Virus record (IMG/VR): IMGVR_UViG_3300030330_006022
Span: 1-64,000 of that record
Reading direction: 5' to 3' (one strand)
From: a virus
Lineage: Duplodnaviria > Caudoviricetes
DNA: 64,000 nt
In this document: in pieces, positions 9,324 to 27,128 of the stretch
Position numbering within the stretch: position 1 is the first letter of the stretch
Layout: each line of letters begins with the position of its first letter
Made by a program: the position numbers and the translations under genes
Notes under the pieces: model-generated
Seen by the model: the letters and a program-made list of their open reading frames with translations, nothing else
Databases searched by the model: none
What the model was told of the DNA's origin: nothing

Positions 9324-9668
9324 ATGACAGAAGAAATAGATAATATTTTAAATTACCTTAAAAAAACTGGGCTAAATTCTATTGACACTAGATCACCAGC
9401 TTGGAAATTATTACATAATAATAAAGTTGACATTCCGATGTCACCGAAGTCAAATAAAATAATTGACATTACGATGAAAGAAGAAAACGGACAAAAAATG
9501 ACCGTTGGTCTTTTGGTGCGACACAGGACAGTTCCACAACTTGGTCTTGGACTTGTTGTCGCTGAGAGCAAGAAACACAAAGGCTATTGGATAGTCCAAT
9601 GGTGTGATAAGCGATACTGTGACGTTGGTGAACTAGGTATTGATCGAGATTATTTGGTGATTGTTTGA
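9324..9668 (+). CDS. hypothetical protein; C-terminal half is a VGxLV mini-domain
   Basis: GGAGG RBS; MTVGLLVRH..LGLVV..YWIVQW. Confidence 0.55.
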   Translation: MTEEIDNILNYLKKTGLNSIDTRSPAWKLLHNNKVDIPMSPKSNKIIDITMKEENGQKMTVGLLVRHRTVPQLGLGLVVAESKKHKGYWIVQWCDKRYCDVGELGIDRDYLVIV

Positions 9669-9671
9669 AAA

Positions 9672-9715
9672 CGGACATTTTTTGACCTTGTTAGATTTGG
9701 CTTGCGTGTTATAAT
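9672..9715 (+). promoter_or_regulatory. palindrome + promoter (abutting class)
   Basis: CGGACATTTTTTGACC|TTGTTA-N16-TATAAT. Confidence 0.75.
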
Positions 9716-9738
9716 ATAAGAGAACAAGCGAGGTGAAT

Positions 9739-9909
9739 ATGATTATGTCTAAATACAAAGTCGGTGACTTAGTGTTGCTTGAAATGACAGATGGTGAAAC
9801 TAGATTGTATGTTGTCATAAGCGAATTATTAGGCTGTACAATAAAAGTAAAAAACATAGCAACAGGAAGAATTGATCGTATGCCACCACGTTGGTTTACA
9901 AAGTTATAA
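9739..9909 (+). CDS. SH3/KOW-like mini-protein (56 aa, not in ORF track)
   Basis: GAGGTG RBS; MIMSKYKVGDLVLL. Confidence 0.75.
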   Translation: MIMSKYKVGDLVLLEMTDGETRLYVVISELLGCTIKVKNIATGRIDRMPPRWFTKL

Positions 9910-9912
9910 AAA

Positions 9913-9956
9913 CGGACATTTTCTGTCCTTGATTTATTTTTGGTTCGTGTTATATT
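9913..9956 (+). promoter_or_regulatory. palindrome + promoter (abutting class)
   Basis: CGGACATTTTCTGTCC|TTGATT-N16-TATATT. Confidence 0.75.
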
Positions 9957-9979
9957 ATAAAAGAACAAGCGAGGTGAAT

Positions 9980-10162
9980 ATGAAAGTAGGCGATTTAGTA
10001 TGGTCATTAGTTTTGAACTCCTTAGATGGAACAGTCATAGAAAAACGATTGGCAATAATTGTTGAGATAGGTGCTGATCCTTTTAATCCATATTGGATAC
10101 AATTGATTTCAAATGGACGAGAGGGTAAGACTTGTGAAAAATATCTTGCCCAAGTGGATTAA
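9980..10162 (+). CDS. SH3/KOW-like mini-protein
   Basis: GAGGTG RBS; MKVGDLVW. Confidence 0.75.
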   Translation: MKVGDLVWSLVLNSLDGTVIEKRLAIIVEIGADPFNPYWIQLISNGREGKTCEKYLAQVD

Positions 10163-10170
10163 AACCAAAA

Positions 10171-10214
10171 CGGACATTTTTTGACCTTTACAAATAAACA
10201 TAACCTGTTATATT
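10171..10214 (+). promoter_or_regulatory. palindrome + promoter (abutting class)
   Basis: CGGACATTTTTTGACC|TTTACA-N16-TATATT. Confidence 0.75.
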
Positions 10215-10254
10215 ATAAATGTCAAGATTTTTTTTATTTTTTTTCGGAGGTATT

Positions 10255-10434
10255 GTGAAAATAGGAACATTAGTGCGAATAATAAACCTTTGGCATCCAA
10301 CTCAGAAAGGTGCTATGGGTATTATAGTAGATAGAGGAGTTCACCACGATGGTGAATGGAAGTATGAAATTTTATTCCCTAGTGGAGACAAAAGTTGGTG
10401 GACAAAACGTCGCTTGGAGGTGCTATGCAAGTAG
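10255..10434 (+). CDS. SH3/KOW-like mini-protein
   Basis: GGAGG + GTG; MKIGTLVR...LEVLCK. Confidence 0.75.
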   Translation: MKIGTLVRIINLWHPTQKGAMGIIVDRGVHHDGEWKYEILFPSGDKSWWTKRRLEVLCK

Positions 10435-10586
10435 GTGATTTAGTAAGATTTGATTATGATCATGTGATTGGTGTTGTTATGAGAGTAGACTATGACTTCG
10501 AGTATGGAATGATGTATCGTGTCGCCTTTGTTGATGGTAGTGTGGAATGGTGCATAGAAGATGATTTGGAGGTAGTATGCGAATAG
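10425..10586 (+). CDS. SH3/KOW-like mini-protein
   Basis: MQVGDLVRF...LEVVCE; 10-nt overlap with both neighbours. Confidence 0.8.
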   Translation: MQVGDLVRFDYDHVIGVVMRVDYDFEYGMMYRVAFVDGSVEWCIEDDLEVVCE

Positions 10587-10771
10587 GAGATTTAGTAAGA
10601 ACCAAAGAGACTTATCTACCAAAGCCACGTCCTTTAGGTCTTATTGTCGGATCAAAAATCTGGGATCAAAAAGGTCATGGCTATGGCAAACTAACATTTT
10701 TAGTACAGTTTGTTAATGATACTAGTCCGACATGGTGGACAGAAGATTTTTTGGAGGTAATATGCGAGTAG
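10577..10771 (+). CDS. SH3/KOW-like mini-protein
   Basis: MRIGDLVRT...LEVICE. Confidence 0.8.
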   Translation: MRIGDLVRTKETYLPKPRPLGLIVGSKIWDQKGHGYGKLTFLVQFVNDTSPTWWTEDFLEVICE

Positions 10772-10956
10772 GTGATTTAGTATGGGCAAGGTGGGCTGAG
10801 CAATGCATAGGTATTGTTATTGGCATTATTTTTGACGAAACAGAGGTAGAGTATTCTTATCGTATAAAGTGGCTTTTTCAATCTCCATACGAGTCAAGAG
10901 AATACATAGAAGATTTAGTCACAAAGGAGGAGAAATGCTCAAAACAGGAGATTTAG
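10762..10956 (+). CDS. SH3/KOW-like mini-protein
   Basis: MRVGDLVWA. Confidence 0.8.
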   Translation: MRVGDLVWARWAEQCIGIVIGIIFDETEVEYSYRIKWLFQSPYESREYIEDLVTKEEKCSKQEI

Positions 10957-11096
10957 TACGTCTGTATGGATACTTGGAACGTAAGGAGATAGGTATAATC
11001 TTACGTCATAACCCACGCTTTTTTTCATATACTATTTATTGGGTAAAAACAGGTAAGATAAATGCAGTATCTACTTCGGATGTGAGGTCATTATGA
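10935..11096 (+). CDS. SH3/KOW-like mini-protein
   Basis: AAGGAGG RBS; MLKTGDLVRL. Confidence 0.75.
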   Translation: MLKTGDLVRLYGYLERKEIGIILRHNPRFFSYTIYWVKTGKINAVSTSDVRSL

Positions 11097-11287
11097 GAAG
11101 AAAAAAGAAGTTAAAGGTCGGAATGTTGGTGCGTGTAATCAACAGGCACACAAGCGAGATTATGCCCGAAATGTATGTAATAGTGGAGAGAATGGTTGGG
11201 GGTCTGTGGGCAATATCCCCTGTCGGTGACTTGACAATAGAAAGGCACTATCACACAAAATCCCTAAAGGAGGTAAAATGCAAGTAG
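11093..11287 (+). CDS. SH3/KOW-like mini-protein
   Basis: LKVGMLVRV...LKEVKCK. Confidence 0.75.
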   Translation: MRRKKKLKVGMLVRVINRHTSEIMPEMYVIVERMVGGLWAISPVGDLTIERHYHTKSLKEVKCK

Positions 11288-11442
11288 GTAGTTTAGTAAA
11301 GATAAGTCAATCAAACATTGGAGACAAAGGGAAGTTCGCTATTGTTGTGAAAATGTATCCAAATAACGCAGTAATACACGTTGTAGATACTGGGGAAGTA
11401 TGGAACTATGCCCTTTATAACTTGGAGGTGCTATGCAAGTAG
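11278..11442 (+). CDS. SH3/KOW-like mini-protein (54 aa, not in ORF track)
   Basis: MQVGSLVKI...LEVLCK. Confidence 0.8.
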   Translation: MQVGSLVKISQSNIGDKGKFAIVVKMYPNNAVIHVVDTGEVWNYALYNLEVLCK

Positions 11443-11648
11443 GCGATTTAGTGAGGATAAAAAAGGCTTGGATAAGTATGTACGAGGGCTACGAGGATAC
11501 TGTAGGGCTAGTGGTGTATGCCGATAGTGGCTATGGGGGAGAAAGACCTGTGGGATTTCGTAGGATTAGAATACTTCATGGCGATATGAACGGTCAAATC
11601 TATTCCGTATTTGCCGAAGAAGTCTTGGAGGTGGTATGTTCAAAGTAG
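11433..11648 (+). CDS. SH3/KOW-like mini-protein
   Basis: MQVGDLVRI...LEVVCSK. Confidence 0.8.
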   Translation: MQVGDLVRIKKAWISMYEGYEDTVGLVVYADSGYGGERPVGFRRIRILHGDMNGQIYSVFAEEVLEVVCSK

Positions 11649-11791
11649 GTGATTTAGTGATAGATTATTGTGGTGACATAGGTGTTGTTGTAAAAAAAGT
11701 AAACTGTGATTGTTGGAAAGTACACTACACAGATAGGTGGATACGCAATATGTGGGTTGCTGATATAGAGAGGTTAGTATGTTCAAAGTAG
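11636..11791 (+). CDS. SH3/KOW-like mini-protein (51 aa, not in ORF track)
   Basis: MFKVGDLVIDYCGDIGVVV...LVCSK. Confidence 0.8.
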   Translation: MFKVGDLVIDYCGDIGVVVKKVNCDCWKVHYTDRWIRNMWVADIERLVCSK

Positions 11792-11934
11792 GCGATTTAG
11801 TGATAACTTATTGTGGTAATATAGGTATTGTCGTATATTCCTCAGACTGTGATTGGTGGACAATACACTACATAGACGGTACTGGTGAGGGTAATATGTG
11901 GACAACAGAAATAAGGTTATTATGTTCAAAATAG
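11779..11934 (+). CDS. SH3/KOW-like mini-protein (51 aa, not in ORF track), paralog of 11636
   Basis: MFKVGDLVITYCGNIGIVV...LLCSK. Confidence 0.8.
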   Translation: MFKVGDLVITYCGNIGIVVYSSDCDWWTIHYIDGTGEGNMWTTEIRLLCSK

Positions 11935-12092
11935 GTGACTTAGTAAAATATAAAAAGAGTTCTGTTGATGACGATAGTGTTGGCTTAGTTGTGAAGCAAA
12001 ACCCTATCTACAAAAAGTTTTGGCTTATTCAATGGATTGATGGATCAAAATACCAAGAGAACGAAATGCATTTGGAGGTAGTATGCAAGTAG
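11922..12092 (+). CDS. SH3/KOW-like mini-protein
   Basis: MFKIGDLVKY...FWLIQWIDGSKY..LEVVCK. Confidence 0.8.
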   Translation: MFKIGDLVKYKKSSVDDDSVGLVVKQNPIYKKFWLIQWIDGSKYQENEMHLEVVCK

Positions 12093-12259
12093 GAGATTTA
12101 GTCAGATACAAAAAGTCATTCACAAATAACTGTGACTATATGGGCTTAGTTATAGAACGAAAACCATTATCACGAACAAAAAAATTTTGGCTTATTCAAT
12201 GGATTGATGGATCAAAGTACATAGAGGACGAAAAAAACTTGGAAGTGGTCAAAAAATGA
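12083..12259 (+). CDS. SH3/KOW-like mini-protein (58 aa, not in ORF track), paralog of 11922
   Basis: MQVGDLVRY...FWLIQWIDGSKY..LEVVKK. Confidence 0.8.
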   Translation: MQVGDLVRYKKSFTNNCDYMGLVIERKPLSRTKKFWLIQWIDGSKYIEDEKNLEVVKK

Positions 12260-12299
12260 CCGTTTTGAATTTGACAGGATTGTCACAAACAGTTATATT
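12247..12299 (+). promoter_or_regulatory. palindrome + promoter (9-nt-gap class)
   Basis: GGTCAAAAAATGACC-N9-TTGACA-N17-TATATT. Confidence 0.85.
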
Positions 12300-12326
12300 A
12301 TAAACATCAATCAAACGGAGGACGTT

Positions 12327-12548
12327 ATGAAACAAAAAGTAATAGTACTACAAATCAGATTTAGTGGTGACGATAACACAATCTATGTCTGTAAGACCTT
12401 TGAGATAGCCCACAGGATTATCAGAGAGTGGTTCAAGGATAGTATTGAGGACATAAACACTTATGGCATAGGCGACCTAGAGGATGAACTATGGGAGAGA
12501 GACATAGGCTACTGGGAGGTTACAGAGGAGGTAGTGATATGCGAGTAG
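12327..12548 (+). CDS. hypothetical protein ending in the junction repeat
   Basis: GGAGG RBS; ends EEVVICE but lacks the VGDLV start. Confidence 0.7.
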   Translation: MKQKVIVLQIRFSGDDNTIYVCKTFEIAHRIIREWFKDSIEDINTYGIGDLEDELWERDIGYWEVTEEVVICE

Positions 12549-12691
12549 GTTCATTGGTAAGACACATAGAGCATGAATTCTTTGCTATTGCGACACAATG
12601 GTATCACGATAACACTTGGCTTGTGGTACGGATAGATAATGCTATTTGCAATTGGTATAGCGAGTGTGAGTTGGAGGTTCTATGCGAGTAG
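12539..12691 (+). CDS. SH3/KOW-like mini-protein
   Basis: MRVGSLVRH...LEVLCE. Confidence 0.8.
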   Translation: MRVGSLVRHIEHEFFAIATQWYHDNTWLVVRIDNAICNWYSECELEVLCE

Positions 12692-12840
12692 GTTCTTTGG
12701 TAAAGGTTCGGCATAGAGGTAGTAGAATAGCAAAAATCGGTCTAATCACATATATAGACAATCAAATAGCCAAGTTGGTATGGGTAAACGGTGAAAAAGG
12801 TGCGATACACACAAAGTGGTTGGAGGTATTATGCGAGTAG
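12682..12840 (+). CDS. SH3/KOW-like mini-protein (52 aa, not in ORF track)
   Basis: MRVGSLVKV...LEVLCE. Confidence 0.8.
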   Translation: MRVGSLVKVRHRGSRIAKIGLITYIDNQIAKLVWVNGEKGAIHTKWLEVLCE

Positions 12841-13019
12841 GTTCTTTGGTAAAGTTTGCTCACCGTTGGATGGATGATACCCATATCGGTGTTGTTATGG
12901 GTTATTGGACTCACGATGTGTCTGAGGAACAACACATATTGGTTTGTTGGCTGACAGGAAGATACACAGGTGACACAGACGCAATCATTGAGAGCGATTT
13001 GGAGGTATTATGCGAGTAG
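12831..13019 (+). CDS. SH3/KOW-like mini-protein
   Basis: MRVGSLVKF...LEVLCE. Confidence 0.8.
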   Translation: MRVGSLVKFAHRWMDDTHIGVVMGYWTHDVSEEQHILVCWLTGRYTGDTDAIIESDLEVLCE

Positions 13020-13174
13020 GAACATTGGTAACAAGTAGGTGGAACTATTCTATGGGTATAGTCTTGTTGATAGGTACACACTATGGCGATGAATGGGTAC
13101 AAGTAAAATGGATTGTGGACACAAGTCTTGACCCATTTCAGTATACTCACGACTTGGAGGTATTATGCGACTAG
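13010..13174 (+). CDS. SH3/KOW-like mini-protein (54 aa, not in ORF track)
   Basis: MRVGTLVTS...LEVLCD. Confidence 0.8.
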   Translation: MRVGTLVTSRWNYSMGIVLLIGTHYGDEWVQVKWIVDTSLDPFQYTHDLEVLCD

Positions 13175-13395
13175 ATATAGATAAACAATCAATAAGAGTA
13201 GGTTCTTTGGTTATGTGGAATAGAAAATCCTCAAATGACTATGGTTGCATGGGTATAGTCACCGATTTTTATTTTGAAGAACAAGATGGTGACAAACCTA
13301 TTTTAGAATTCTCAGTTCTTTGGGCAGATAATGATAGGGTTGACTATGACTATAACGATCTACTTAAGGTGTTTCTAAAAGTGGTCATTTTTTGA
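13165..13395 (+). CDS. SH3/KOW-like mini-protein
   Basis: IRVGSLVMW..MGIV..LKVVIF. Confidence 0.75.
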   Translation: MRLDIDKQSIRVGSLVMWNRKSSNDYGCMGIVTDFYFEEQDGDKPILEFSVLWADNDRVDYDYNDLLKVFLKVVIF

Positions 13396-13435
13396 CCGTT
13401 TTGGATTTGACAAATAAAACTAAACAGATTATGTT
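13383..13435 (+). promoter_or_regulatory. palindrome + promoter (9-nt-gap class)
   Basis: GGTCATTTTTTGACC-N9-TTGACA-N17-TATGTT. Confidence 0.8.
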
Positions 13436-13462
13436 AACAACATCATTCAAACACAGGAGGTA

Positions 13463-13801
13463 ATGATGATTAGAACTTGTAAACATTGTGAAGATGAATT
13501 CGACTGTCAGAGTGCTGAAAAGCAACGAGTGGGGGGCTACATTAACGAGTGTCCCGATTGTGTCGAGGAACTGGGTACGGAGACACACGTTAGGTACAGG
13601 GGTTGTGTATCAGGTGAGAGTAAACAAGCCTGTATATCCATCTTGTCCTTTGACAGCGAGAAAGATGCCGACACTTATCAGAAGAAGTGGGAAGCCAATC
13701 GTGGTTGGAATAACCAACGCAAGGGTGGTCTTAACGACATTAAGTTTAAGACAGTCACAGTCAACAATGCTGGCGACAGTAAACGTAAAACAGACCAATA
13801 G
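13463..13801 (+). CDS. zinc-ribbon protein
   Basis: CKHC...CPDC. Confidence 0.7.
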   Translation: MMIRTCKHCEDEFDCQSAEKQRVGGYINECPDCVEELGTETHVRYRGCVSGESKQACISILSFDSEKDADTYQKKWEANRGWNNQRKGGLNDIKFKTVTVNNAGDSKRKTDQ

Positions 13802-13813
13802 GAGGGTACTACT

Positions 13814-14244: not shown

Positions 14245-14452
14245 TGTTGGCGATTTATGTTGGGATATAGTAACAGAGACACTATGGATTATCTCAGATA
14301 TTTGGTGGTGTGGTATAACAGACGACTACAAATACGACCTTACTTCTGTAACATTTGGTGCTACTATTGTAACCAACGACCAAGTTGCTATCTGTATGAG
14401 AGCTGACTTCTTAAAACGGACAAAAAATGTCCTAGACAAATCTGAGGAATAA
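14237..14452 (+). CDS. SH3/KOW-like mini-protein
   Basis: GAGGTG + GTG; VSVGDLCW. Confidence 0.65.
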   Translation: MVSVGDLCWDIVTETLWIISDIWWCGITDDYKYDLTSVTFGATIVTNDQVAICMRADFLKRTKNVLDKSEE

Positions 14453-14460
14453 GTTATATT
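14417..14460 (+). promoter_or_regulatory. palindrome + promoter (abutting class)
   Basis: CGGACAAAAAATGTCC|TAGACA-N16-TATATT. Confidence 0.75.
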
Positions 14461-14895: not shown

Positions 14896-15095
14896 AAACA
14901 GGCGATTTAGTTTATAGAAAGCAACATAGGGCATTTAACAACCCACACGACTACGAGATTTGGCTTGTGATTGGTACAGACGCACGAGAAAGAGGTCAAT
15001 TCAAAGGCTTTGTGAGGATACAGAATGTCCACAACGGTAACAGGATACAATGCAACGCAAATATGCTGATGAAAATAGAAACGGACAAAAAATGA
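14886..15095 (+). CDS. SH3/KOW-like mini-protein, paralog of 14701
   Basis: KTGDLVY..IWLVIG..RIQNVHNG. Confidence 0.75.
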   Translation: MQIKTGDLVYRKQHRAFNNPHDYEIWLVIGTDARERGQFKGFVRIQNVHNGNRIQCNANMLMKIETDKK

Positions 15096-15135
15096 CCGTT
15101 TCGGATTTGACAAGCAATTCAAAATCAATTATATT
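15082..15135 (+). promoter_or_regulatory. palindrome + promoter (9-nt-gap class)
   Basis: CGGACAAAAAATGACC-N9-TTGACA-N17-TATATT. Confidence 0.85.
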
Positions 15136-17226: not shown

Positions 17227-17498
17227 TAAAATGGATTGACGATTATCGCAGTAGTTTCGCTGTGGTTGTTGAGTGTAAGAATAAGAGTTATCTTGTGATA
17301 GACGACTCTTATTCTGTTATCATCTACTACTCCGACAGGGAGGGTGTAGTAAGCGAATATCCTGAGATTTGTAAGATTGAGGGAAAAATGTTATCTGAAG
17401 TTATCTCTGATAACCGAACCTTTATCAGCAATATCAGAATATGGTCAAAAAATGACCGAAATGGAGTTGCAAAAAATCTTGAAACAGTTATATTATAA
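17217..17498 (+). CDS. hypothetical protein starting in the junction repeat
   Basis: 10-nt overlap with the upstream gene. Confidence 0.55.
   Translation: MQIIKWIDDYRSSFAVVVECKNKSYLVIDDSYSVIIYYSDREGVVSEYPEICKIEGKMLSEVISDNRTFISNIRIWSKNDRNGVAKNLETVIL
17443..17494 (+). promoter_or_regulatory. palindrome + promoter (9-nt-gap class)
   Basis: GGTCAAAAAATGACC-N9-TTGCAA-N16-TATATT. Confidence 0.75.
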
Positions 17499-17768: not shown

Positions 17769-18123
17769 ATTCAAACGTAAAAACGGTTCTTTTAGATATA
17801 CTAACTCAGCAAAAGAGTGGCAAGATGGTGATGGAATACATTACATCCATTATCCCTTTATGATTTACAAAGACCATAGTAAATATTCTCTTACTCACCT
17901 GTCAAGTGGTGCTTTGGTGTGTAGAACAAGTAGTTTGTATAGTGCCAAGTACATAGCAACAAGAATATTCCCCTTGCCACAGTTCCTTTTGCCCGATACT
18001 AACCTTGTAAAACTTATGTCAGAGGAACAACGTAGGTTCTGTACCGATATTATTGGTAGGTATAGTGACGTTAGTAAGGGAAAAGTTATCGAGTTGGACA
18101 AAAACTGTCCGTTTACGATTTGA
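17752..18123 (+). CDS. hypothetical protein
   Basis: ORF; LTHLSSGA motif. Confidence 0.55.
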   Translation: MRNILKFKRKNGSFRYTNSAKEWQDGDGIHYIHYPFMIYKDHSKYSLTHLSSGALVCRTSSLYSAKYIATRIFPLPQFLLPDTNLVKLMSEEQRRFCTDIIGRYSDVSKGKVIELDKNCPFTI

Positions 18124-18148
18124 CAATCATTTCATTTCTAGTTATATT
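18096..18148 (+). promoter_or_regulatory. palindrome + promoter (9-nt-gap class)
   Basis: GGACAAAAACTGTCC-N9-TTGACA-N17-TATATT. Confidence 0.85.
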
Positions 18149-18178: not shown

Positions 18179-19414
18179 ATGACTGACAAACCAACCAAAA
18201 AACCAAAGTTCGATTTGGATTTACACACTTATCGCTTGTTACAGGCAGAACCATTCTTTTCGGCTTTATCAAGACGTATCAACAAATCACAGACAAATGC
18301 TATACCTACAGCAGGTGTACGTCTTAATGAGGGTAGTGGTACATTTGAAATGATTTACAATCCCGAATTTTTTGAGAAGTTGTCTGACAAGCAAAAGTTG
18401 GGTGTCCTCAAGCACGAATTCTATCACATCATCTTTGAACACGTCACAGGGAGACTTCCACCAGAGGGTATGTCTAAAGTGTGGAACATAGCCACAGACT
18501 TGGCTATCAACTCATTCCTTATGGACGAACTTCCAGAGGGAGGGTGTATACCTACTAGAGGTATATTCGAGTCATATCCGAAAGAGCAATCAGCAGAGTG
18601 GTATTATTCCAAACTACAACAAGACCAAGAGAACCAAGAGGGTGCATACGACCCGAAACATGGCAAGGGTCAAGGTGATGGAGATGGTGATGGTCAAGGA
18701 GGTGGCGAACCCGACAGTATGGACGACCATAGTGGGTGGGGTGAAGCCGATGCCGACACTAAACAAATGGCAAAGGAACGTATGAGACAGGCAGTAGAGG
18801 ACGCAGTTAAAGAAGTCCAAAGTCGTGGACAGGGTTGGGGTACGGTAGGTGCTTCAATGCAAGAACGTATCATTGATATGATAACTCCAAAGGTCGATTG
18901 GAAGAAAGTTCTTCGCTACTTCATCAAAACCTCCCAACGTAGCAACAAAAGGTCAACAGTCAGACGTATCAATCCCCGATTCCCCTACATTCATGCAGGG
19001 AAAAAGGTCAACAGACAGGCAAAAATTGCAATATCTATCGACCAAAGTGGTTCTGTGTCAGATGCAATGCTATCGGCTTTCTTCTCCGAACTCAACGGGC
19101 TTTCTAAGTTGGCAGAGTTTACAGTAATCCCATTTGACACTAGTGTAGACGAGTCAAAAGTCTATGTGTGGAAGAAAGGTCAACGTAGGGCTACTGAGAG
19201 GGTACTGTGTGGTGGTACTTGCTTCAACGCACCGACAGAATGGGTCAACAATCGTGGTGACTTCGATGGTCACATCATTCTTACTGATATGGAAGCTCAA
19301 AAGCCTGTGGCAAGCAAATGCCAACGTATTTGGTTTACTTCCGACTATCACGCAAAAAATCCGTACTTCTCTACAACTGAGAAAGTTATCGGTATTCCTA
19401 TTGACAACTCATAG
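18179..19414 (+). CDS. HEXXH metallopeptidase-like + vWA domain protein (DUF2201-type)
   Basis: KHEFYH, WNIATDLAIN, G/D/Q linker, DDH..W, MIDAS IDQSGS, GGTCF, ILTD; start reassigned after AGGAGG. Confidence 0.88.
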   Translation: MTDKPTKKPKFDLDLHTYRLLQAEPFFSALSRRINKSQTNAIPTAGVRLNEGSGTFEMIYNPEFFEKLSDKQKLGVLKHEFYHIIFEHVTGRLPPEGMSKVWNIATDLAINSFLMDELPEGGCIPTRGIFESYPKEQSAEWYYSKLQQDQENQEGAYDPKHGKGQGDGDGDGQGGGEPDSMDDHSGWGEADADTKQMAKERMRQAVEDAVKEVQSRGQGWGTVGASMQERIIDMITPKVDWKKVLRYFIKTSQRSNKRSTVRRINPRFPYIHAGKKVNRQAKIAISIDQSGSVSDAMLSAFFSELNGLSKLAEFTVIPFDTSVDESKVYVWKKGQRRATERVLCGGTCFNAPTEWVNNRGDFDGHIILTDMEAQKPVASKCQRIWFTSDYHAKNPYFSTTEKVIGIPIDNS

Positions 19415-19507: not shown

Positions 19508-19780
19508 ATGACAACACAAAAGTGGAAATATAGAGAACATTTGGGTAGGCAAGGCAAGTTTCGAGTGGGTGACTTAGTAACAGTTACAGCCTATGCTCTG
19601 ACAACCGAACAGAACGACAGGCTATTGGGCATTGATCATACCAAGTTAGTCGGTCTTATCGTAAAGATAGGTAATCATCGCTCTGACAAGTACCCCATAA
19701 AGGTAGATTGGATCAACCCTATGTACAATAAAATGCCAAAAAACTTCTTCTTCAGAGAGTTAAAACGAAAACGGTCATAA
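19508..19780 (+). CDS. SH3/KOW-like mini-protein with N-terminal extension
   Basis: AAGGAGG RBS; KFRVGDLVTV..VGLIVKI..IKVDW. Confidence 0.7.
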   Translation: MTTQKWKYREHLGRQGKFRVGDLVTVTAYALTTEQNDRLLGIDHTKLVGLIVKIGNHRSDKYPIKVDWINPMYNKMPKNFFFRELKRKRS

Positions 19781-19824
19781 ATTGTCCGAAAACAGTTTGC
19801 TTTATTTTTCAGAACGGTTATAAT
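19772..19824 (+). promoter_or_regulatory. palindrome + promoter (9-nt-gap class)
   Basis: CGGTCATAAATTGTCC-N9-TTGCTT-N16-TATAAT. Confidence 0.8.
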
Positions 19825-20061: not shown

Positions 20062-20106
20062 CGGACATTTTTTGTCCTTGCTTTATTTCTCAAACCTAGT
20101 TATATT
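20062..20106 (+). promoter_or_regulatory. palindrome + promoter (abutting class)
   Basis: CGGACATTTTTTGTCC|TTGCTT-N17-TATATT. Confidence 0.8.
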
Positions 20107-20157: not shown

Positions 20158-21216
20158 ATGACTATTGATTTCAAAACCCTTATTAACAACATTCTTCCTC
20201 ACGTCCTTGACTCCAAGTTCCCTGTTTTACTTCGTGGTAGGCATGGTATTGGCAAAAGTACTGTAGTATATCAAATCGCTAAAGAACGTGGCTTGCCTGT
20301 CGTAGAACGTCGTGCTAGTCAAATGACTGAGGGTGACTTACTTGGTCTACCAAAGGTCAATAACAATGTTACACAATGGTTAGCACCAGAGTGGCTTGAT
20401 ACGGCTTGTAAAAACCCTGTTGTCCTTTTCTTGGACGAAGTTGACAGAGCAACACTTGAAGTCCGACAAGGTATCTTTGAGTTGTGTGACAGTCGCAAGA
20501 TTGCAGGTCACTCCCTACACCCCGACACCCTTATCTTTGCTTGTGTCAATGGTGGTCAGCATGGTGCTGAGTATCAAGTCAACGAGTTCGACCCTGCCGA
20601 GCTTGACCGTTATACTGTCTTTGACGTAGAACCTACGGTTGAAGATTGGTTGGCTTGGGCTGAGGGCAAAGTTGCCGACCCTATTTGGGATTTCATCAAC
20701 CACAACCATAATCACTTGGAACACAAGGATACTTTCGAGCCTAACAAGATTTATCCATCAAGACGTAGTTGGGAACGATTATCTCAAACTCTTGATAAAG
20801 TCGGAAAAATCGAGCATGGCACGACATTGTACCACTTGGCTCACTCTTTCATCGGCTTTGAGGGTGCTATGGCTTTCAATGACTATGTGAAGAACTACTG
20901 TAAGGTTGTGACACCCGAAGATATTCTTGACAAGGGCAACATCAAGTTGACCAAGAAGTTCAAAATCAACGACCATAACTCATTGATTGAGAAGTTCAAG
21001 GCTAAGAAGTGTTTCGATGACAAGTTAGAACAATCACAGTTGCAGAACCTTGCCGAATACTTCACAACACTTCCATCTGAAATCGCTATGACCTTGTGGC
21101 AAGCGATGGGAAGTGGTACTGAAGCTACTCACAACGTGGCACAGTTGCATGGTCTACAGACTAAGCAAGGCTCTGTTCAAGACTTTATCGTCAAGATATT
21201 GACAGCAGGGCAATAA
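20158..21216 (+). CDS. MoxR-like AAA+ ATPase
   Basis: Walker A GRHGIGKS, Walker B LFLDEVDR, DPAELDR, PSRRSWE. Confidence 0.9.
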   Translation: MTIDFKTLINNILPHVLDSKFPVLLRGRHGIGKSTVVYQIAKERGLPVVERRASQMTEGDLLGLPKVNNNVTQWLAPEWLDTACKNPVVLFLDEVDRATLEVRQGIFELCDSRKIAGHSLHPDTLIFACVNGGQHGAEYQVNEFDPAELDRYTVFDVEPTVEDWLAWAEGKVADPIWDFINHNHNHLEHKDTFEPNKIYPSRRSWERLSQTLDKVGKIEHGTTLYHLAHSFIGFEGAMAFNDYVKNYCKVVTPEDILDKGNIKLTKKFKINDHNSLIEKFKAKKCFDDKLEQSQLQNLAEYFTTLPSEIAMTLWQAMGSGTEATHNVAQLHGLQTKQGSVQDFIVKILTAGQ

Positions 21217-22173: not shown

Positions 22174-22226
22174 CGGTCAAAAATTGTCCGTTTGACGTTT
22201 GCAATATCCTGTGAATCAGTTATAAT
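22174..22226 (+). promoter_or_regulatory. palindrome + promoter (9-nt-gap class)
   Basis: CGGTCAAAAATTGTCC-N9-TTGCAA-N16-TATAAT. Confidence 0.8.
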
Positions 22227-22450: not shown

Positions 22451-22671
22451 ACATAGGAGATTTAGTAACGTGGAAGTTGGACGTTTACAATAAAAAAGCC
22501 ATATTGGAATATGGTATTGTTATCGGATACTTCAATGGCAAGACAAGTTATAGAAGAAATGCCTGTGTATGGGTGAAGTTTTCAAGTGGTCAACACTCCC
22601 ATAGAGAGAAAACCTTATGTGCTATCGAACAACTTGTCCTTGCTAAGGACATAAAACAAAAACGGACATAA
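22447..22671 (+). CDS. SH3/KOW-like mini-protein
   Basis: MNIGDLVTW; 32-nt RBS/start block identical to the preceding gene. Confidence 0.8.
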   Translation: MNIGDLVTWKLDVYNKKAILEYGIVIGYFNGKTSYRRNACVWVKFSSGQHSHREKTLCAIEQLVLAKDIKQKRT

Positions 22672-22706
22672 ATTGTCCTTGCAATATTCTGAGAACAGGT
22701 TATATT
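22663..22706 (+). promoter_or_regulatory. palindrome + promoter (abutting class)
   Basis: CGGACATAAATTGTCC|TTGCAA-N16-TATATT. Confidence 0.8.
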
Positions 22707-22734
22707 ATAAGTACATTCCAACACAGGAGATCAA

Positions 22735-22941
22735 ATGCTAGAAAAACTAAAAGAAACTCTAACTTATATCAACAACACTCCAGTTCAAGACATAGACCTT
22801 GACATTCTATTTGAGATAATAGAAGAATACAATACCCTTTATATCGACCCAGACGATGAGTGTCCTTTAGAGTCCTGTATGCTTGGTGACATTGAGGTGG
22901 CATTTTATAACGCACAAGATATTCAAAAAAATGAAGAATAA
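22735..22941 (+). CDS. small acidic hypothetical protein
   Basis: AGGAG RBS. Confidence 0.6.
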   Translation: MLEKLKETLTYINNTPVQDIDLDILFEIIEEYNTLYIDPDDECPLESCMLGDIEVAFYNAQDIQKNEE

Positions 22942-22974
22942 ATAACCAACAACATCAATCAATCGGAGGACATA

Positions 22975-23187
22975 ATGAATAATAAAAAAGTAGAACGAAA
23001 ATCACTTATTGATTTAGGGAGAAGTAAATACTGGTATGTGGTTTACACAGATGGGTCTTATGAACAAATCCCTGTAATCGAAACCAAATCAACAAAAAAA
23101 GATTTTCACCTATCTTCTGAGGAAGAAGATGCGATACTAGAGACTTATCTTGAATTCAAAAACAAAAGAGGACAAAAACGGACATAA
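22975..23187 (+). CDS. hypothetical protein
   Basis: GGAGG RBS. Confidence 0.6.
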   Translation: MNNKKVERKSLIDLGRSKYWYVVYTDGSYEQIPVIETKSTKKDFHLSSEEEDAILETYLEFKNKRGQKRT

Positions 23188-23222
23188 TCTGTCCTTGCAA
23201 ATATCTGAGAACAGATTATATT
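23179..23222 (+). promoter_or_regulatory. palindrome + promoter (abutting class)
   Basis: CGGACATAATCTGTCC|TTGCAA-N16-TATATT; near-copy of the 22663 promoter. Confidence 0.8.
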
Positions 23223-23247
23223 ATAAATACAACAACAGGAGAATACA

Positions 23248-23724
23248 ATGGAATATACATCACAGATTGCTGATATGCTACATAACCCACAACACCCCCG
23301 ATATAGCGATGAATGTTTTAATACTGACTTAATGGCTTATATATTAAAGGACAATACTTTATATGGAGTAACAAATATATGGTGTAGAGATTTCAGACGT
23401 TGGTTAGAGACATACGATATTATTGTGCCCGATAACAGAAGAATGTATACTCCTATTGGTAAACTTGAAAATGGCAAGATTATTGGATATAACACACAGT
23501 TTGCTAATATGGGTAACACGTTCTTGGAGATGGTTGAGACAACAAGAGATAAAGCCTTTTCAAATCTTTACTTCGTAGAAGTTGGATTACATCCATATCC
23601 AAAGTTGGCTAGGTATCGACACACTTGGTTGATAGATAACTACCACAGAGATTGTCACATACTTCTTAATCCACCCACAGACCCGAAAAAGTTCTTCATT
23701 TTGCCAAAGGACTTAGTACCCTAG
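23248..23724 (+). CDS. hypothetical protein
   Basis: AGGAG RBS. Confidence 0.6.
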   Translation: MEYTSQIADMLHNPQHPRYSDECFNTDLMAYILKDNTLYGVTNIWCRDFRRWLETYDIIVPDNRRMYTPIGKLENGKIIGYNTQFANMGNTFLEMVETTRDKAFSNLYFVEVGLHPYPKLARYRHTWLIDNYHRDCHILLNPPTDPKKFFILPKDLVP

Positions 23725-23906
23725 TACACTCCTCCTATCTACCCTACTACCCCACTACCCCTATGGGCTATCTAAAACGCAATCTATCCGTAGATACAAG
23801 CCTGTAAACGGTAGGATTTTAATAAACACTAACTTCGATATAGTATACACATATACATATCAGATACATCAACCACATAACTAGCACCACAACGGAGAAA
23901 TCGCCT

Positions 23907-24155
23907 ATGTCTAACGAAAATAATCAACAAAAACTTTTCAAACCTGTCGTAACCGACACTTTCACAGCCTGTGGTATTATTGAGGGGTTCGTTGAAATTC
24001 CCGATGGTGTGGACGAAGAACAAGCACACATACAGGCATGGCAATACTTAATCGACACAGGTGCGTGTTGGTCGTTACAGGGGTTTTACGGACGTAACGC
24101 ACAGGCTTTAATCGAACAAGGTATATGTACACGACCCACGACACAAAACTCTTGA
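23907..24155 (+). CDS. conserved phage hypothetical protein
   Basis: AWQYLIDTG.CWSLQGFYGR.A..LIE.G motif. Confidence 0.7.
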   Translation: MSNENNQQKLFKPVVTDTFTACGIIEGFVEIPDGVDEEQAHIQAWQYLIDTGACWSLQGFYGRNAQALIEQGICTRPTTQNS

Positions 24156-24208
24156 CAGGTTTTCAAGTATCACCTAGAACAGATTGAGTGTTATACACTT
24201 AAAACCCC

Positions 24209-24249
24209 GACTTCCTAAGGATCGAAAGTCTTGACGGAAGTCTTTTTTT
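24209..24249 (+). terminator. intrinsic terminator
   Basis: GACTTCC...GGAAGTC stem followed by a T-tract. Confidence 0.6.
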
Positions 24250-24292
24250 GTCAAGGATAAATAATTGACATTACGATAATAAGATTGCTTTT

Positions 24293-24345
24293 CGGTCATT
24301 TTTTGTCCAACTTCCATTTGACAGGATCACCAAATCGGTTATGTT
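24293..24345 (+). promoter_or_regulatory. palindrome + promoter (9-nt-gap class)
   Basis: CGGTCATTTTTTGTCC-N9-TTGACA-N16-TATGTT. Confidence 0.8.
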
Positions 24346-24375
24346 ACTAACATCACCAAAACAACGGAGGTTCAA

Positions 24376-24495
24376 ATGGACTTACTTCTTATCATCACTC
24401 TATCAGGACTCTTTTGGGGATTACTCTGTATCCTTTCGGAAGTAGCAACAACAATTCATCGGTCAGAAACTGTCCGAAAACGATTTGACAGATAG
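24376..24495 (+). CDS. 39-aa single-pass membrane peptide (not in ORF track)
   Basis: GGAGG RBS; MDLLLIITLSGLFWGLLCILSEVATTIHRSETVRKRFDR. Confidence 0.6.
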   Translation: MDLLLIITLSGLFWGLLCILSEVATTIHRSETVRKRFDR

Positions 24496-24513
24496 AGATT
24501 TTGAGGTTATATT
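24460..24513 (+). promoter_or_regulatory. palindrome + promoter (9-nt-gap class)
   Basis: CGGTCAGAAACTGTCC-N9-TTGACA-N17-TATATT. Confidence 0.8.
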
Positions 24514-24540
24514 ATAAACATCACTTCAACGGAGGACAAT

Positions 24541-24612
24541 ATGGCAATCGCTTTTATTATGCTACTTGTTATTCTATCACCAATCTATATTCACGTCTTT
24601 ATGGAGGACTAA
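24541..24612 (+). CDS. 23-aa hydrophobic peptide (not in ORF track)
   Basis: GGAGG RBS; MAIAFIMLLVILSPIYIHVFMED. Confidence 0.55.
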   Translation: MAIAFIMLLVILSPIYIHVFMED

Positions 24613-24614
24613 CT

Positions 24615-24791
24615 ATGAATGAATACATCAACCTTACCAACAAACAACTATCCGAAATGTTTTACAAGTCACGTATTGCAGTGAATTCTTTGACTAAATC
24701 AATGTCTAGTAATGATAGACAATATCTTATCAAAAGGCATAAAGATTTATCAGCAGAGATATTACGACGTGGTACAGCCTTTTTATTGTAA
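24615..24791 (+). CDS. hypothetical protein
   Basis: GGAGG RBS before ATG 24615. Confidence 0.6.
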   Translation: MNEYINLTNKQLSEMFYKSRIAVNSLTKSMSSNDRQYLIKRHKDLSAEILRRGTAFLL

Positions 24792-24792
24792 T

Positions 24793-24846
24793 CGGTCAAT
24801 TTCTGTCCGTTTCACATTTGACAAATCTTTTCAACCCTGTTATATT
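24793..24846 (+). promoter_or_regulatory. palindrome + promoter (9-nt-gap class)
   Basis: CGGTCAATTTCTGTCC-N9-TTGACA-N17-TATATT. Confidence 0.85.
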
Positions 24847-24874
24847 ATAAACACTTAACCAATCGGAGGTCACT

Positions 24875-25129
24875 ATGACACTAGAACAAATCATCAACGC
24901 ATTTATCAATCACACATCGGAAGTAAAAGGTCGCTATGGACTGTCGATTCGTGGAGGTGCTTTATATTCTTACAATCTCAAGATTGCTGAACATATCTTG
25001 GGCTCACGTCAAATCATCGTCTATGACTACATGGCGACAGGTTCACGTGGAATGGTGTCGGCTACTACTAGCAAACACGTTGGTATGATTAAACGTGCTG
25101 TTCCTCAGAACTGTTTAGAACTACGATAA
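24875..25129 (+). CDS. conserved phage hypothetical protein
   Basis: LYSYNLKIA...SATTSKHV motif. Confidence 0.65.
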   Translation: MTLEQIINAFINHTSEVKGRYGLSIRGGALYSYNLKIAEHILGSRQIIVYDYMATGSRGMVSATTSKHVGMIKRAVPQNCLELR

Positions 25130-25184
25130 TCTTCTTCCTTACTACCTACTACCCTACCCCTCTACCCCTCTATAGGAGCATAAT

Positions 25185-25454
25185 ATGAAATATTCAAAAA
25201 AACAAAAATCATTATCTCAACCTGTCATCGACTTATTGTCGCACATGTCGAAACTTGTGGACAAGGGTCTCACCCCTGTTGAAGCTGTCGAATGGATGCA
25301 AGAGATTGAACCACAATGGCGATGTAGTCGTGGTTATCCAGCAACAACAGGAGGATTGCGACAGGCACGACAACGTCTTGAACGTAAAGTTGAGATGATG
25401 AAACAGGTCAACAATGGTGTCACAACCTTTATTAACAACAAACCAAAGCAATAA
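25185..25454 (+). CDS. small basic hypothetical protein
   Basis: AGGAG RBS. Confidence 0.6.
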   Translation: MKYSKKQKSLSQPVIDLLSHMSKLVDKGLTPVEAVEWMQEIEPQWRCSRGYPATTGGLRQARQRLERKVEMMKQVNNGVTTFINNKPKQ

Positions 25455-25464
25455 GGAGCTTATA

Positions 25465-25647
25465 ATGGAATCTTTATACGATAGGAACACAATATGTAAC
25501 AAAGATGGAATGATGATCTCCCTCGCACTCGCAACAGCTATGGAGGAACTTGAAAAAGCACGTGAGGAAGGTGATGAACAAGGTGAAATGATGATGAACA
25601 TCGCTGTTAATATGCTACTTGAACAAGTTGAGCCCATAGAGGAGTAA
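25465..25647 (+). CDS. small acidic hypothetical protein
   Basis: AAGGAG RBS before ATG 25465. Confidence 0.6.
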   Translation: MESLYDRNTICNKDGMMISLALATAMEELEKAREEGDEQGEMMMNIAVNMLLEQVEPIEE

Positions 25648-25663
25648 AAAGGGCTCTTTTTTT
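25630..25663 (+). terminator. possible intrinsic terminator
   Basis: GAGCCC-N15-GGGCTC followed by T7. Confidence 0.45.
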
Positions 25664-25707
25664 GTCAATAGAAATTAATTGACATTACGATAAGTTCAAT
25701 GACCAGT

Positions 25708-25764
25708 CGGACATTTTTTGTCCGTTTTGAGTTTGACAACCTCATTTTTATAGGTTATTATAAT
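25708..25764 (+). promoter_or_regulatory. palindrome + promoter (9-nt-gap class)
   Basis: CGGACATTTTTTGTCC-N9-TTGACA-N17-TATTAT(AAT). Confidence 0.8.
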
Positions 25765-25788
25765 AGTACATTCTAACAAGAGGTTTTT

Positions 25789-25944
25789 ATGAAAATAGAA
25801 AGTAAAGCAATAATTCGTCGTCGTATCCAACAACTTGAGGCAGATATCAAATCAGTTCGTAATAGTGGGAACACTTACAGAATGAGAATTCTGTATGCAC
25901 AATTGTCGGCTGCAACGATAAAGTTAGTCAATATGAAAAACTAG
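25789..25944 (+). CDS. 51-aa basic helical peptide (not in ORF track)
   Basis: GAGG RBS; MKIESKAIIRRRIQQLEADIK... Confidence 0.6.
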   Translation: MKIESKAIIRRRIQQLEADIKSVRNSGNTYRMRILYAQLSAATIKLVNMKN

Positions 25945-25996
25945 GACATTTTCTGTCCGTTTTGGATTTGACAAACCCTTTTTTATTGGTTATAAT
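25944..25996 (+). promoter_or_regulatory. palindrome + promoter (9-nt-gap class)
   Basis: GGACATTTTCTGTCC-N9-TTGACA-N17-TATAAT. Confidence 0.88.
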
Positions 25997-26027
25997 ATAG
26001 TATATTCTTTTTCATAGGAGGTCTTAG

Positions 26028-26624
26028 ATGACTAAAAAAACATTCACCATTCAAATCACCCCTATCAGAGCACCATTTATGAGGTGCCGACAGGATGCCG
26101 TTCCTACCGTATGTAAAAAGTATGTCAACGGAAAGGTCGAATATCACGAGTTTCGTTGGAATAACCCGAAGGCTGGGCGTAATATTATGTGGAAGGATAA
26201 TCCCGACACCATCGAAGAAAGAGAGCAATACAAGCAACAGTTTGCTGATAGAGTACAACGTGCGTTCGATAAAGCAAACATCCGTTTCTTTAAGCACTAC
26301 AACGGAATAAAGTTTGAGGACGAAATCGTACGTGTCTATGCTCCTTATCCCGACATTGCTCCAAATGCGACTATCACAGTATACTCTCAACGTGTCCACG
26401 AATACAACGCACATCGCGACTTTTTACGTGACATAGTCTCTAAGATGAACATTCAGTTCAATACTTTAATGTGTGTCCTCCAACAGGGCAAATACGACCT
26501 AGCCAAAGGTTCCCTTTACAAGCTCAATAAATATATGTTTGATTTACAATCAATGTGTCGTCCCGACCACCACGAGGTTGTTTTCAAGGGCAAAGTTAAT
26601 CCCCTCACAGCCAACCTTAAATAG
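26028..26624 (+). CDS. hypothetical protein
   Basis: AGGAGG RBS. Confidence 0.65.
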   Translation: MTKKTFTIQITPIRAPFMRCRQDAVPTVCKKYVNGKVEYHEFRWNNPKAGRNIMWKDNPDTIEEREQYKQQFADRVQRAFDKANIRFFKHYNGIKFEDEIVRVYAPYPDIAPNATITVYSQRVHEYNAHRDFLRDIVSKMNIQFNTLMCVLQQGKYDLAKGSLYKLNKYMFDLQSMCRPDHHEVVFKGKVNPLTANLK

Positions 26625-26625
26625 A

Positions 26626-26679
26626 CGGTCAAAATCTGTCCGTTTTGGACTTCTCAAATCATCATTTTTGTGTTATATT
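26626..26679 (+). promoter_or_regulatory. palindrome + promoter (9-nt-gap class)
   Basis: CGGTCAAAATCTGTCC-N9-TTCTCA-N17-TATATT, TG extended -10. Confidence 0.75.
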
Positions 26680-26711
26680 ATATAAGTATTCAATCAAAAG
26701 GAGTTATGAAT

Positions 26712-27074
26712 ATGTCAAAAAAATCATCTGAAAAATCCCGTTTACGACGTGCTATTTCACAACAACTATATCGCTCTCACGAACGACTTCTTGAGGAAGC
26801 TCTTGAGCAAAAGCCCGAAGTCACAGACTTATTGAAGTTACGTGCTATGTACCCCGACTATGACGTGGATAAGTTACTACGTTTACAACGTCTTAATATG
26901 AAAATCAATCAAGCGAACGACTTCCTCATAGAGGAGCAATCAGCTTGGCTTGACCCATCATCCCGTCCATCAGGAGGTATTCCTTACAATGAAGAACTCT
27001 TTGGCAAACCATTCGCTTCTGACGATGATAATGCTGAGGACATCAATGCTGAGGTCTACGACGAAGAAAACTAG
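26712..27074 (+). CDS. hypothetical protein
   Basis: AAGGAG RBS; basic N-terminus, acidic C-terminus. Confidence 0.6.
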   Translation: MSKKSSEKSRLRRAISQQLYRSHERLLEEALEQKPEVTDLLKLRAMYPDYDVDKLLRLQRLNMKINQANDFLIEEQSAWLDPSSRPSGGIPYNEELFGKPFASDDDNAEDINAEVYDEEN

Positions 27075-27075
27075 T

Positions 27076-27128
27076 CGGTCATTTTCTGTCCATTTTGGAT
27101 TAGCAATCTTTTTAATCTATGTTATAAT
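27076..27128 (+). promoter_or_regulatory. palindrome + promoter (9-nt-gap class)
   Basis: CGGTCATTTTCTGTCC-N9-TAGCAA-N16-TATAAT, TG extended -10. Confidence 0.75.

Follow-up and report, generated by a model that had tools for sequence, protein, structure and literature searches.

The record IMGVR_UViG_3300030330_006022 (Duplodnaviria; Caudoviricetes), from an uncultured marine phage, carries an island of small genes in which 21 promoters are preceded by a 15-bp palindrome, GGWCA-N5-TGWCC (search pattern GGWCANNNNNTGWCC). The explanation that we favour, with a probability of roughly 0.55, is that this palindrome is the operator of a dimeric, DNA-bending factor that sits at the positions of upstream (UP) element subsites and acts positively with RNA polymerase, and that it forms part of a cassette similar to the promoter early stem-loops (PeSLs) of T4-type phages. 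The window analysed here is the first 64 kb of the 114,350-bp record, which is about 63% complete; the record is labelled G000, and related records carry labels of the same kind.

By pattern count, the palindrome has exactly 22 matches in the window, the first starting at 9489 and the last at 27077, against a chance expectation of 0.06 on average, and one at most, in shuffled window sequences. The exact copies span 9489-27091 and no further one is present in the whole 114,350-bp record. These are the same places that had been listed in an earlier interpretation made from the letters of this DNA (hereafter the sequence-only reading), which confined 22 copies to 9488-27091. Only six variants with one mismatch occur genome-wide in the 114 kb, three of them inside the island, and the motif is therefore sharp. 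The island consists of about 60 small genes in about 21 operons, bounded by a palindrome-less promoter at 9276 and by a hairpin terminator at 27832-27853. The scan over genome and relatives that the sequence-only reading had proposed as a check confirmed this restriction within the record; together with follow-up searches, the pattern scan brought to light at least 17 related marine contigs that also carry the palindrome, grouped in an island of like kind.

Twenty-one of the 22 palindromes lie upstream of a sigma-70-type promoter (-35/N16-17/-10) scoring 8-12 of 12, and each of these promoters is followed, in this order, by a short leader, a GGAGG-type ribosome site (Shine-Dalgarno) and a start codon; the exception is the copy at 9489. 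Two arrangements account for all of them, and no other spacing occurs in the window. In the proximal class (seven copies, at 9673, 9914, 10172, 14418, 20063, 22664 and 23180), the palindrome abuts the -35 hexamer and is preceded by AAAAC in 7/7 cases. In the distal class (14 copies), a 9-nt linker, mostly GTTTnnnnT, separates it from the -35, three of these copies being equally readable as 8 nt followed by N17. The sequence-only reading had described the same 21 promoter-linked copies and the same two geometries, seven abutting after AAAA and 14 at 9 nt, and its remark that promoters outside the island are free of the palindrome also held for the eight strong ones that we inspected in the record (964, 4276, 9276, 35127, 39636, 47341, 48862 and 108428), which have A-rich tracts upstream instead.

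With the -10 hexamer taken as positions -12 to -7, the palindromes of the window are centred at -42/-43 (proximal) or at -51/-52 (distal). When G000-G003 and two further records (L005 and L009) are considered together, 24 copies are centred at -42/-43, 45 at -51 to -53 and three at -63, with none between. Among the 14 distal cassettes the -35/-10 spacers are 34% identical in pairwise comparison and the linkers 55%, while linker length is constant; the spacing would therefore be under selection, and not just a product of recent copying. In G000-G003, proximal promoters have a poorer -35 match than distal ones (4.4 vs 5.1 of 6, p=0.0075) and mostly N16 spacers.

The base constraints were examined on 80 copies pooled from six records (this one and five relatives). 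The palindrome has ten invariant positions, eight of them G/C, arranged as a dyad of two 5-bp arms whose centres are 10 bp apart. Positions 7-9 are A/T in 80/80 copies, although the search pattern puts no constraint on them. C is absent from position 6 and G from position 10; the non-A/T bases found at +-2 (25/160 cases) are just G on the left or C on the right. The base preceding the core (position 0) is G in 0/80 copies and that following it (position 16) is C in 0/80, so that the constraints at +-2 and +-8 are symmetric, and the flanks are enriched in AAA and TTT. In contrast to this conservation of sequence, pairing is not maintained: positions W3 and W13 show no covariation (43 pairable vs 37 non-pairable copies, Fisher p=0.82; 11 vs 11 in the window alone). 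Since the sequence is kept where pairing is not, a protein site is favoured over a hairpin. Judged by its form, two 5-bp arms 10 bp apart around an obligatory A/T centre, the site is the signature of a dimer reading successive major grooves across a narrowed minor groove, in line with the dimeric protein suggested by the sequence-only reading.

The same data bear on the possibility that the palindrome folds as RNA and ends the upstream operon, as in classical PeSLs, which of all the alternatives is the one we find hardest to credit. A simple scan for terminators does flag nine of the copies with exact pairing, some of them on the minus strand only, in copies flanked by AAAAC/GTTTT the stem can reach 10 bp (-8 to -9 kcal/mol), and the same stem serves true terminators in unrelated phage contigs. 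In the latter (L210, L214, L216 and L201), AAAAC-GGACA-N5-TGTCC-GTTTTTTT forms ordinary terminators with G/C-containing loops and long T-runs. The palindromes of the island, in contrast, have A/T-only loops, half of them (11/22) have a central A-A or T-T mismatch, and the proximal copies are without a T-run, so that the stable G+C-rich stem and U-run of an intrinsic terminator are not found. Their predicted RNA stems have a mean minimum free energy of -5.7 kcal/mol, the weakest being -1.5, compared with about -11 for the two hairpins at the island borders. It is these sequence statistics, the mismatches and the lack of covariation, that disfavour a terminator; together with the weak folding energies, they also set the palindrome apart from the structure-conserved stem-loop terminator of PeSLs.

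Among relatives, the palindrome is constant and the core promoter varies. Copy numbers are 19 in G001, 19 in G002, 8 in G003, 18 in G004, 10 in G005, 12 in G009, 13 in G010 and 28 in G015. In G004, 15/18 palindromes are directly adjoined by TACCCA or TACCCG (TACCCR) where a -35 would be expected, and roughly half of these have an extended -10 (TGn); in the three promoters with a -35 of TTGACA/TCGACA type, the palindrome stands 10 nt upstream. TACCCA-N2-TACCCC direct repeats were also seen in this relative (L118/L119, 151318-162800) between palindrome and -10; the TACCCA repeats may mark an additional protein site or a promoter class of an unusual kind. L207 uses TGGAC-type hexamers, and in G015 the palindrome is either followed directly by TTGACT or separated from TTGACA by a 7-nt linker (centre -49/-50). 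Some palindrome copies of G015 have no recognisable promoter, and in its contig L123 two pairs of palindromes, at 51644-51673 and 51964-51993, are joined head to tail, the members of a pair being offset by 15 bp.

Beyond this group, a megablast search with the island retrieved nothing from 50,697 phage records. A scan of the collection with AAACGGACA-N5-TGTCC yielded five further relatives, its other matches being mostly due to chance or, in unrelated contigs, to true terminators; it did not demonstrate the motif in any unrelated phage lineage. Neither host nor lineage could be usefully derived from the GroEL and gp46-like proteins, whose best match from a cultured phage was Microcystis phage Mel-JY01 at 30% identity, and few of the large proteins could be annotated with PHROGs.

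The positions occupied by the palindrome are those of UP elements, and its promoters do have A/T tracts on the helix face turned to polymerase, near -42 and -52. Such tracts, in subsites at about -40 to -60 on that face, are typical of the UP elements of strong phage and rRNA promoters (PMC4390567, PMC4132738), and occur in just this form in the other promoters of the phage and in palindrome-less relatives (G007, G006 and G033), where plain A/T-tract elements stand directly upstream of TTGACA. A generic scan for over-represented palindromes detected no substitute motif in G007, and G006 and G033 showed just T-tracts and a probably coding sequence, TTGAAATCATT.

A direct comparison is offered by G014 (L121/L122) and G015 (L123/L124), in which most proteins are 80-98% identical, island genes included, and three baseplate/tail open reading frames (ORFs) are just 44-57% identical. 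Where G015 has 28 palindromes, G014 has one. At orthologous junctions every island cassette differs between the two, from the A/T centre of the palindrome to just before the ribosome site: the cassette of G014 is A6-N7-T6C-TTGACA-N17-TATAAG, and relic left half-sites, GGWCAAAAAAT, are retained at the ends of its upstream genes. The palindrome can thus trade places with a UP-like element, and the cassettes of a genome are exchanged as a set. The divergence of the tail proteins hints at different hosts for these two phages.

These observations could be taken to mean that no protein other than polymerase is involved, the palindrome being a special UP element or curved DNA contacted directly by the alpha subunit through its C-terminal domain (alpha-CTD). 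The A/T centres at -42/-52, the flanking A/T tracts in helical phase and the exchange with A/T-tract elements in relatives would all fit. However, ten invariant positions, eight of them G/C in a dyad, conserved across at least 17 diverged contigs are foreign to UP elements, to which neither G/C arms nor dyad symmetry belong, and the phage's own non-island promoters rely on plain A-tracts. We accordingly regard a protein-independent element as improbable.

We therefore return to the operator for a sequence-specific, dimeric, DNA-bending protein. It would be placed where alpha-CTD/UP-element subsites normally sit, at about -42 abutting the -35, at about -52, or, in one relative, at -63, and the bound factor would most likely help to recruit polymerase, as activators of class II and class I do. 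Bound proximally, it would substitute for a weak or missing -35; bound distally, it would work alongside a consensus -35 and the T-tract linker. Class II and class I logic is suggested by the way in which proximal sites go with a weak or lacking -35 and distal sites with a consensus one. The class II arrangement, a site abutting a degenerate -35 at about -42, is seen both in the proximal promoters of G000-G003, with their low -35 scores and N16 spacers, and in the TACCCR promoters of G004. Class I activators, like alpha-CTD, must occupy the polymerase face of the helix (PMC4132738), and the centres at -42, -52 and -63 in G000-G003 would suit a displacement by whole helical turns, while those of G015 would not. 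That a protein binds, that it acts positively and that the island is early are inferences, as is the switching of the whole island by one protein that the sequence-only reading put forward.

A close parallel is phage Mu, in which a phage-specific activator governs a temporal class of promoters. At the Mu Pm promoter, a Mor dimer sits on a pair of 5-bp inverted repeats whose centre is at -43.5, where it takes over from the -35 and works together with alpha-CTD (PMC4390567), and the Mor/C promoters share with the proximal class the dimeric site at this distance, the compensated -35 and an adjacent UP subsite. They differ in that the Mor element is of 16 bp with even spacing and serves a single promoter through a known activator, while here a 15-bp core serves 21 promoters, with a second geometry at -52, and no Mor-family protein was detected.

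Several points weigh against an activator. Most distal promoters already have consensus -35 and -10 hexamers and should not need one, and action from about -52 is not known for activators of the CRP type. The centres in G015, at -43 and at -49/-50, do not lie a full helical turn apart, and two of its palindrome pairs abut. The fixed spacing within one genome could partly reflect the common descent of the cassettes. Pfam searches detected no DNA-binding domain in the 61 island proteins and, for 46 other proteins, none among the matches listed (25 of 36 families). Finally, Fis may be proposed as the reader only on condition that the host bears it.

The case for Fis rests on the site. Every published rule for Fis sites that we tried (PMC4784862) is obeyed by the palindrome: the 15-bp core is bounded by G at -7 and C at +7 (22/22 copies, by pattern); a Y-R step lies at +-(3-4), with a purine at -4b/+4 (C4-A5 and T11-G12 are invariant); the centre, from -2 to +2, is A/T-rich (positions 7-9 in 80/80), as needed for minor-groove compression; and no G stands right upstream of the core at -8 (0/80 copies), with A/T tracts enriched in the flanks. 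The fit to the Fis consensus claimed by the sequence-only reading is thus borne out, although the motif is far more stringent than natural Fis sites, which are highly degenerate where the palindrome is invariant at ten positions. It is also invariant at +-6, which is not among the described Fis base contacts, and prefers C at +-8, which lowers the affinity of E. coli Fis (PMC4784862).

A phage-encoded Fis-like protein, P0001, had been named by the sequence-only reading as a candidate reader through its gene at 39299. Its best profile match is the C-terminal helix-turn-helix (HTH) of Fis, although weakly so (hidden Markov model E=0.2; the HTH hits in Pfam are weak and fall below threshold), and all top Foldseek hits of its AlphaFold model (predicted local distance difference test, pLDDT, 82) are to E. 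coli Fis, with a probability of 0.97 over about 76 aligned columns but a weak E-value of 0.17. Profile and fold searches both ranking E. coli Fis first, together with the conformity of the palindrome to Fis rules, speak for P0001 as the reader. Its distribution and sequence speak against it. The P0001 family, whose members are 115-125 aa long, belongs to the core genes of a large set of marine phage contigs of about 150-190 kb, 152 viral contigs encode a relative, and homologs occur in many palindrome-less phages; the orthologs of G014, with one palindrome, and G015, with 28, are 98% identical. Furthermore, the recognition helix varies widely among palindrome-bearing phages while the DNA motif does not, and the residue aligned with Fis Arg85, which starts the recognition helix and contacts G+-7, is Q in G000 and E in G004, G005 and G015. 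On phyletic distribution and helix variation we rejected P0001, and give this candidate little credence. Relatives of P0001 were also seen in a 116-kb contig (L137, NHHP01000006.1) of the metagenome-assembled genome (MAG) 'Ca. Pelagibacter sp. TMED166' and in the 2.8-Mb chromosome of a 'WOR-3 bacterium' MAG (L138, CP070664.1). These were the sole hints to the host, and either of them could instead be a binning or assembly artefact; the Pelagibacter MAG carrying the related contig has 0 copies of the motif.

A phyletic screen of the ORFs of G000 and G004 against ten palindrome-bearing and four palindrome-less records yielded just two proteins, P0125 (DUF8033) and P0127, a lipoprotein-like thioredoxin. 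P0127 (32041-32598, 185 aa, with a lipoprotein-type N-terminus, LWAC) was found just in palindrome-bearing records (G002, G004, G009, G010 and G011). P0125 is present in 9/11 palindrome-bearing records vs 2/38 others, the latter having distant homologs only, a tally that is confounded by shared ancestry, and in G015, with its 28 sites, it was not found in the half that is covered. Its model (pLDDT 86) matched no solved fold (Foldseek E>0.8; VIA Z<=3.6) and has no recognisable DNA-binding fold. Pfam searches on 26 selected ORFs detected no DNA-binding domain beyond the weak, sub-threshold HTH of P0001. As the sole candidate that tracks the motif, on weak phyletic evidence, P0125 is a possible phage-encoded reader.

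P0125 would also be a candidate for a different kind of regulation, in which a phage-encoded dimeric repressor, produced once infection is under way, binds the palindromes, displaces alpha-CTD from their A/T centre, which would serve as UP subsite and operator at once, and silences the whole island, while the A-tract promoters stay on. The restriction of the palindrome to the island, with plain A-tracts at the other promoters, the location of the A/T centre and flanking tracts exactly at UP-subsite positions, the A-tract part retained by G014 after losing the arms, and the tracking of the palindrome by an island gene are all as such a shut-off operator would have them. It leaves the weak or absent -35 of proximal sites unexplained, however, and the Pfam scans (61 island proteins; matches listed for 46 others) detected no repressor-like domain; P0125, moreover, has the shortcomings of fold and distribution given above. 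We consider shut-off unlikely.

For the factor of the favoured, activating operator, two observations lean towards a highly conserved reader that is probably encoded by the host: the motif does not change across phages with orthologous proteins of about 50% identity, and the exchange of cassettes between G014 and G015 was wholesale, these two also differing in their tail proteins.

The palindrome does not stand alone, and is the head of a dispersed repeat of about 85 nt, from about 5 nt before it to about 80 nt after its start, non-orthologous copies of which are 77-82% identical. This cassette (palindrome, promoter, leader and Shine-Dalgarno) stands in front of each of the approximately 21 small-gene operons; within one genome its copies evolve in concert, and close relatives can exchange it as a whole. 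The comparison with PeSLs drawn by the sequence-only reading is apt (PMC4122927): as in PeSLs, a short inverted repeat lies directly upstream of a sigma-70-type early promoter, a Shine-Dalgarno and a start, recurs in many copies across a hyperplastic region made up of small ORFs, and belongs to a unit that differs between lineages and is associated with gene gain, loss and swap (PMC2839356, PMC4122927). The PeSLs of T4-type phages are effective terminators (PMC2839356, PMC4122927), and in them the stem sequence is variable and structure matters; here it is the sequence that does not vary, pairing being left unpreserved; the loop is A/T-only, the promoter lies at a fixed distance, and one 15-mer recurs across deeply diverged phages.

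A second role of the cassette as recombination homology, also put forward by the sequence-only reading, stood in part. The cassettes are dispersed repeats exchanged in close relatives, and 8/27 ends of collinear blocks between G000 and G001 fall inside them, against 14% expected, about twice chance. In mini-gene arrays, however, most synteny breaks are at gene junctions and not at palindromes. A PeSL-like shuffling role for the cassette is thus supported no more than moderately by these block ends and the G014/G015 replacement. That the palindrome is itself a recombination site, the core of a site-specific recombinase or a preferred crossover point to which the link with promoters is secondary, would draw on the same block ends, on the cassette exchange of G014, which broke inside the palindrome centre, and on the mini-circle precedent of PeSLs (PMC4122927). 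Recombination would not need the exact -35/-10 spacing, however; no recombinase was found in the Pfam scans (61 island proteins; matches listed for 46 others), and the breaks in mini-gene arrays lie mostly elsewhere. We find this very improbable.

Table 1. Palindromes, promoters and related features of the window (positions are those of the window; centres are given with the -10 hexamer at -12 to -7).
Feature	Position	Strand	Palindrome	Promoter and remarks	Centre
Consensus promoter	9276..9304	+	none	Perfect TTGACA-N17-TGnTATAAT; island start, drives ORF 9324-9668	
Palindrome	9489..9503		9489-9503 (GGACAAAAAATGACC)	No promoter; inside ORF 9324-9668; conserved in 3 relatives	
Proximal cassette	9673..9715	+	9673-9687	Abutting TTGTTA-N16-TATAAT	-42
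Proximal cassette	9914..9956	+	9914-9928	TTGATT-N16-TATATT	-42
Proximal cassette	10172..10214	+	10172-10186	TTTACA-N16-TATATT	-42
Distal cassette	12247..12299	+	12247-12261	9-nt linker, TTGACA-N17-TATATT	-52
Distal cassette	13383..13435	+	13383-13397	9 nt, TTGACA-N17-TATGTT	-52
Proximal cassette	14418..14460	+	14418-14432	TAGACA-N16-TATATT	-42
Distal cassette	15083..15135	+	15083-15097	9 nt, TTGACA-N17-TATATT	-52
Distal cassette	17443..17494	+	17443-17457	9 nt, TTGCAA-N16-TATATT	-51
Distal cassette	18096..18148	+	18096-18110	9 nt, TTGACA-N17-TATATT	-52
Distal cassette	19773..19824	+	19773-19787	9 nt, TTGCTT-N16-TATAAT	-51
Proximal cassette	20063..20106	+	20063-20077	TTGCTT-N17-TATATT	-43
Distal cassette	22175..22226	+	22175-22189	9 nt, TTGCAA-N16-TATAAT	-51
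Proximal cassette	22664..22706	+	22664-22678	TTGCAA-N16-TATATT	-42
Proximal cassette	23180..23222	+	23180-23194	TTGCAA-N16-TATATT	-42
Distal cassette	24294..24345	+	24294-24308	9 nt, TTGACA-N16-TATGTT	-51
Distal cassette	24461..24513	+	24461-24475	9 nt, TTGACA-N17-TATATT	-52
Distal cassette	24794..24846	+	24794-24808	9 nt, TTGACA-N17-TATATT; drives P0125	-52
P0125	24875..25129	+		84-aa DUF8033-family protein	
Distal cassette	25709..25761	+	25709-25723	9 nt, TTGACA-N17-TATTAT	-52
Distal cassette	25944..25996	+	25944-25958	9 nt, TTGACA-N17-TATAAT	-52
Distal cassette	26627..26679	+	26627-26641	9 nt, TTCTCA-N17-TATATT	-52
Distal cassette	27077..27128	+	27077-27091	9 nt, TAGCAA-N16-TATAAT	-51
Terminator-like hairpin	27832..27853	+		Strong; 8-bp stem and T run, -10.7 kcal/mol; island end	
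P0001	39299..39652	+		117 aa; Fis-like fold (weak scores) and C-terminal HTH; candidate reader	

Some further features of the island and its surroundings may be mentioned (Table 1). At 9249-9304 a hairpin with an 11-bp stem (-11.3 kcal/mol) stands right before the TG-extended consensus promoter that lacks a palindrome, and is probably the boundary of the island with the operon before it. A second repeat, AATTGACATTACGAT, is present in three copies (9463-9477, 24265-24279 and 25679-25693), each 26-30 nt upstream of a palindrome; the matching place in the relatives G001 and L009 holds TTGACATTTCTATAGGG. The gene at 18179-19414 is labelled 'HNH endonuclease' by PHROGs, but its Pfam match is to DUF2201 metallopeptidase/VWA domains, and 0.7 kb downstream of it, at 20158-21216, lies a gene for an AAA (AAA_5-type) ATPase. 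This pair is kept, at 57-98%, in all relatives, palindrome-less ones included.

The repeated cassettes of T4-type phages have so far been read as a terminator plus a promoter; here the inverted repeat behaves as a protein operator would, being conserved in sequence but not in pairing and set at a fixed distance from the promoter. A natural case is at hand in two phages with about 90% identical proteins that differ in each of about 25 promoter cassettes. More broadly, and with the odds against so wide a proposal, a widespread clade of uncultured marine phages of about 185 kb may wire an early island of about 20 operons to one conserved host DNA-bending protein, Fis-type or equivalent, via an invariant operator at UP positions, the cassettes being replaced together at a change of host, as in G014/G015; this would amount to promoter rewiring on the scale of a regulon through the concerted exchange of cassettes. 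The 15-bp site may be used to fish out the regulator, and possibly to identify the host of an abundant group of marine phages; should the reader prove to be a host factor, the hosts of these phages could be predicted with the motif as a marker.

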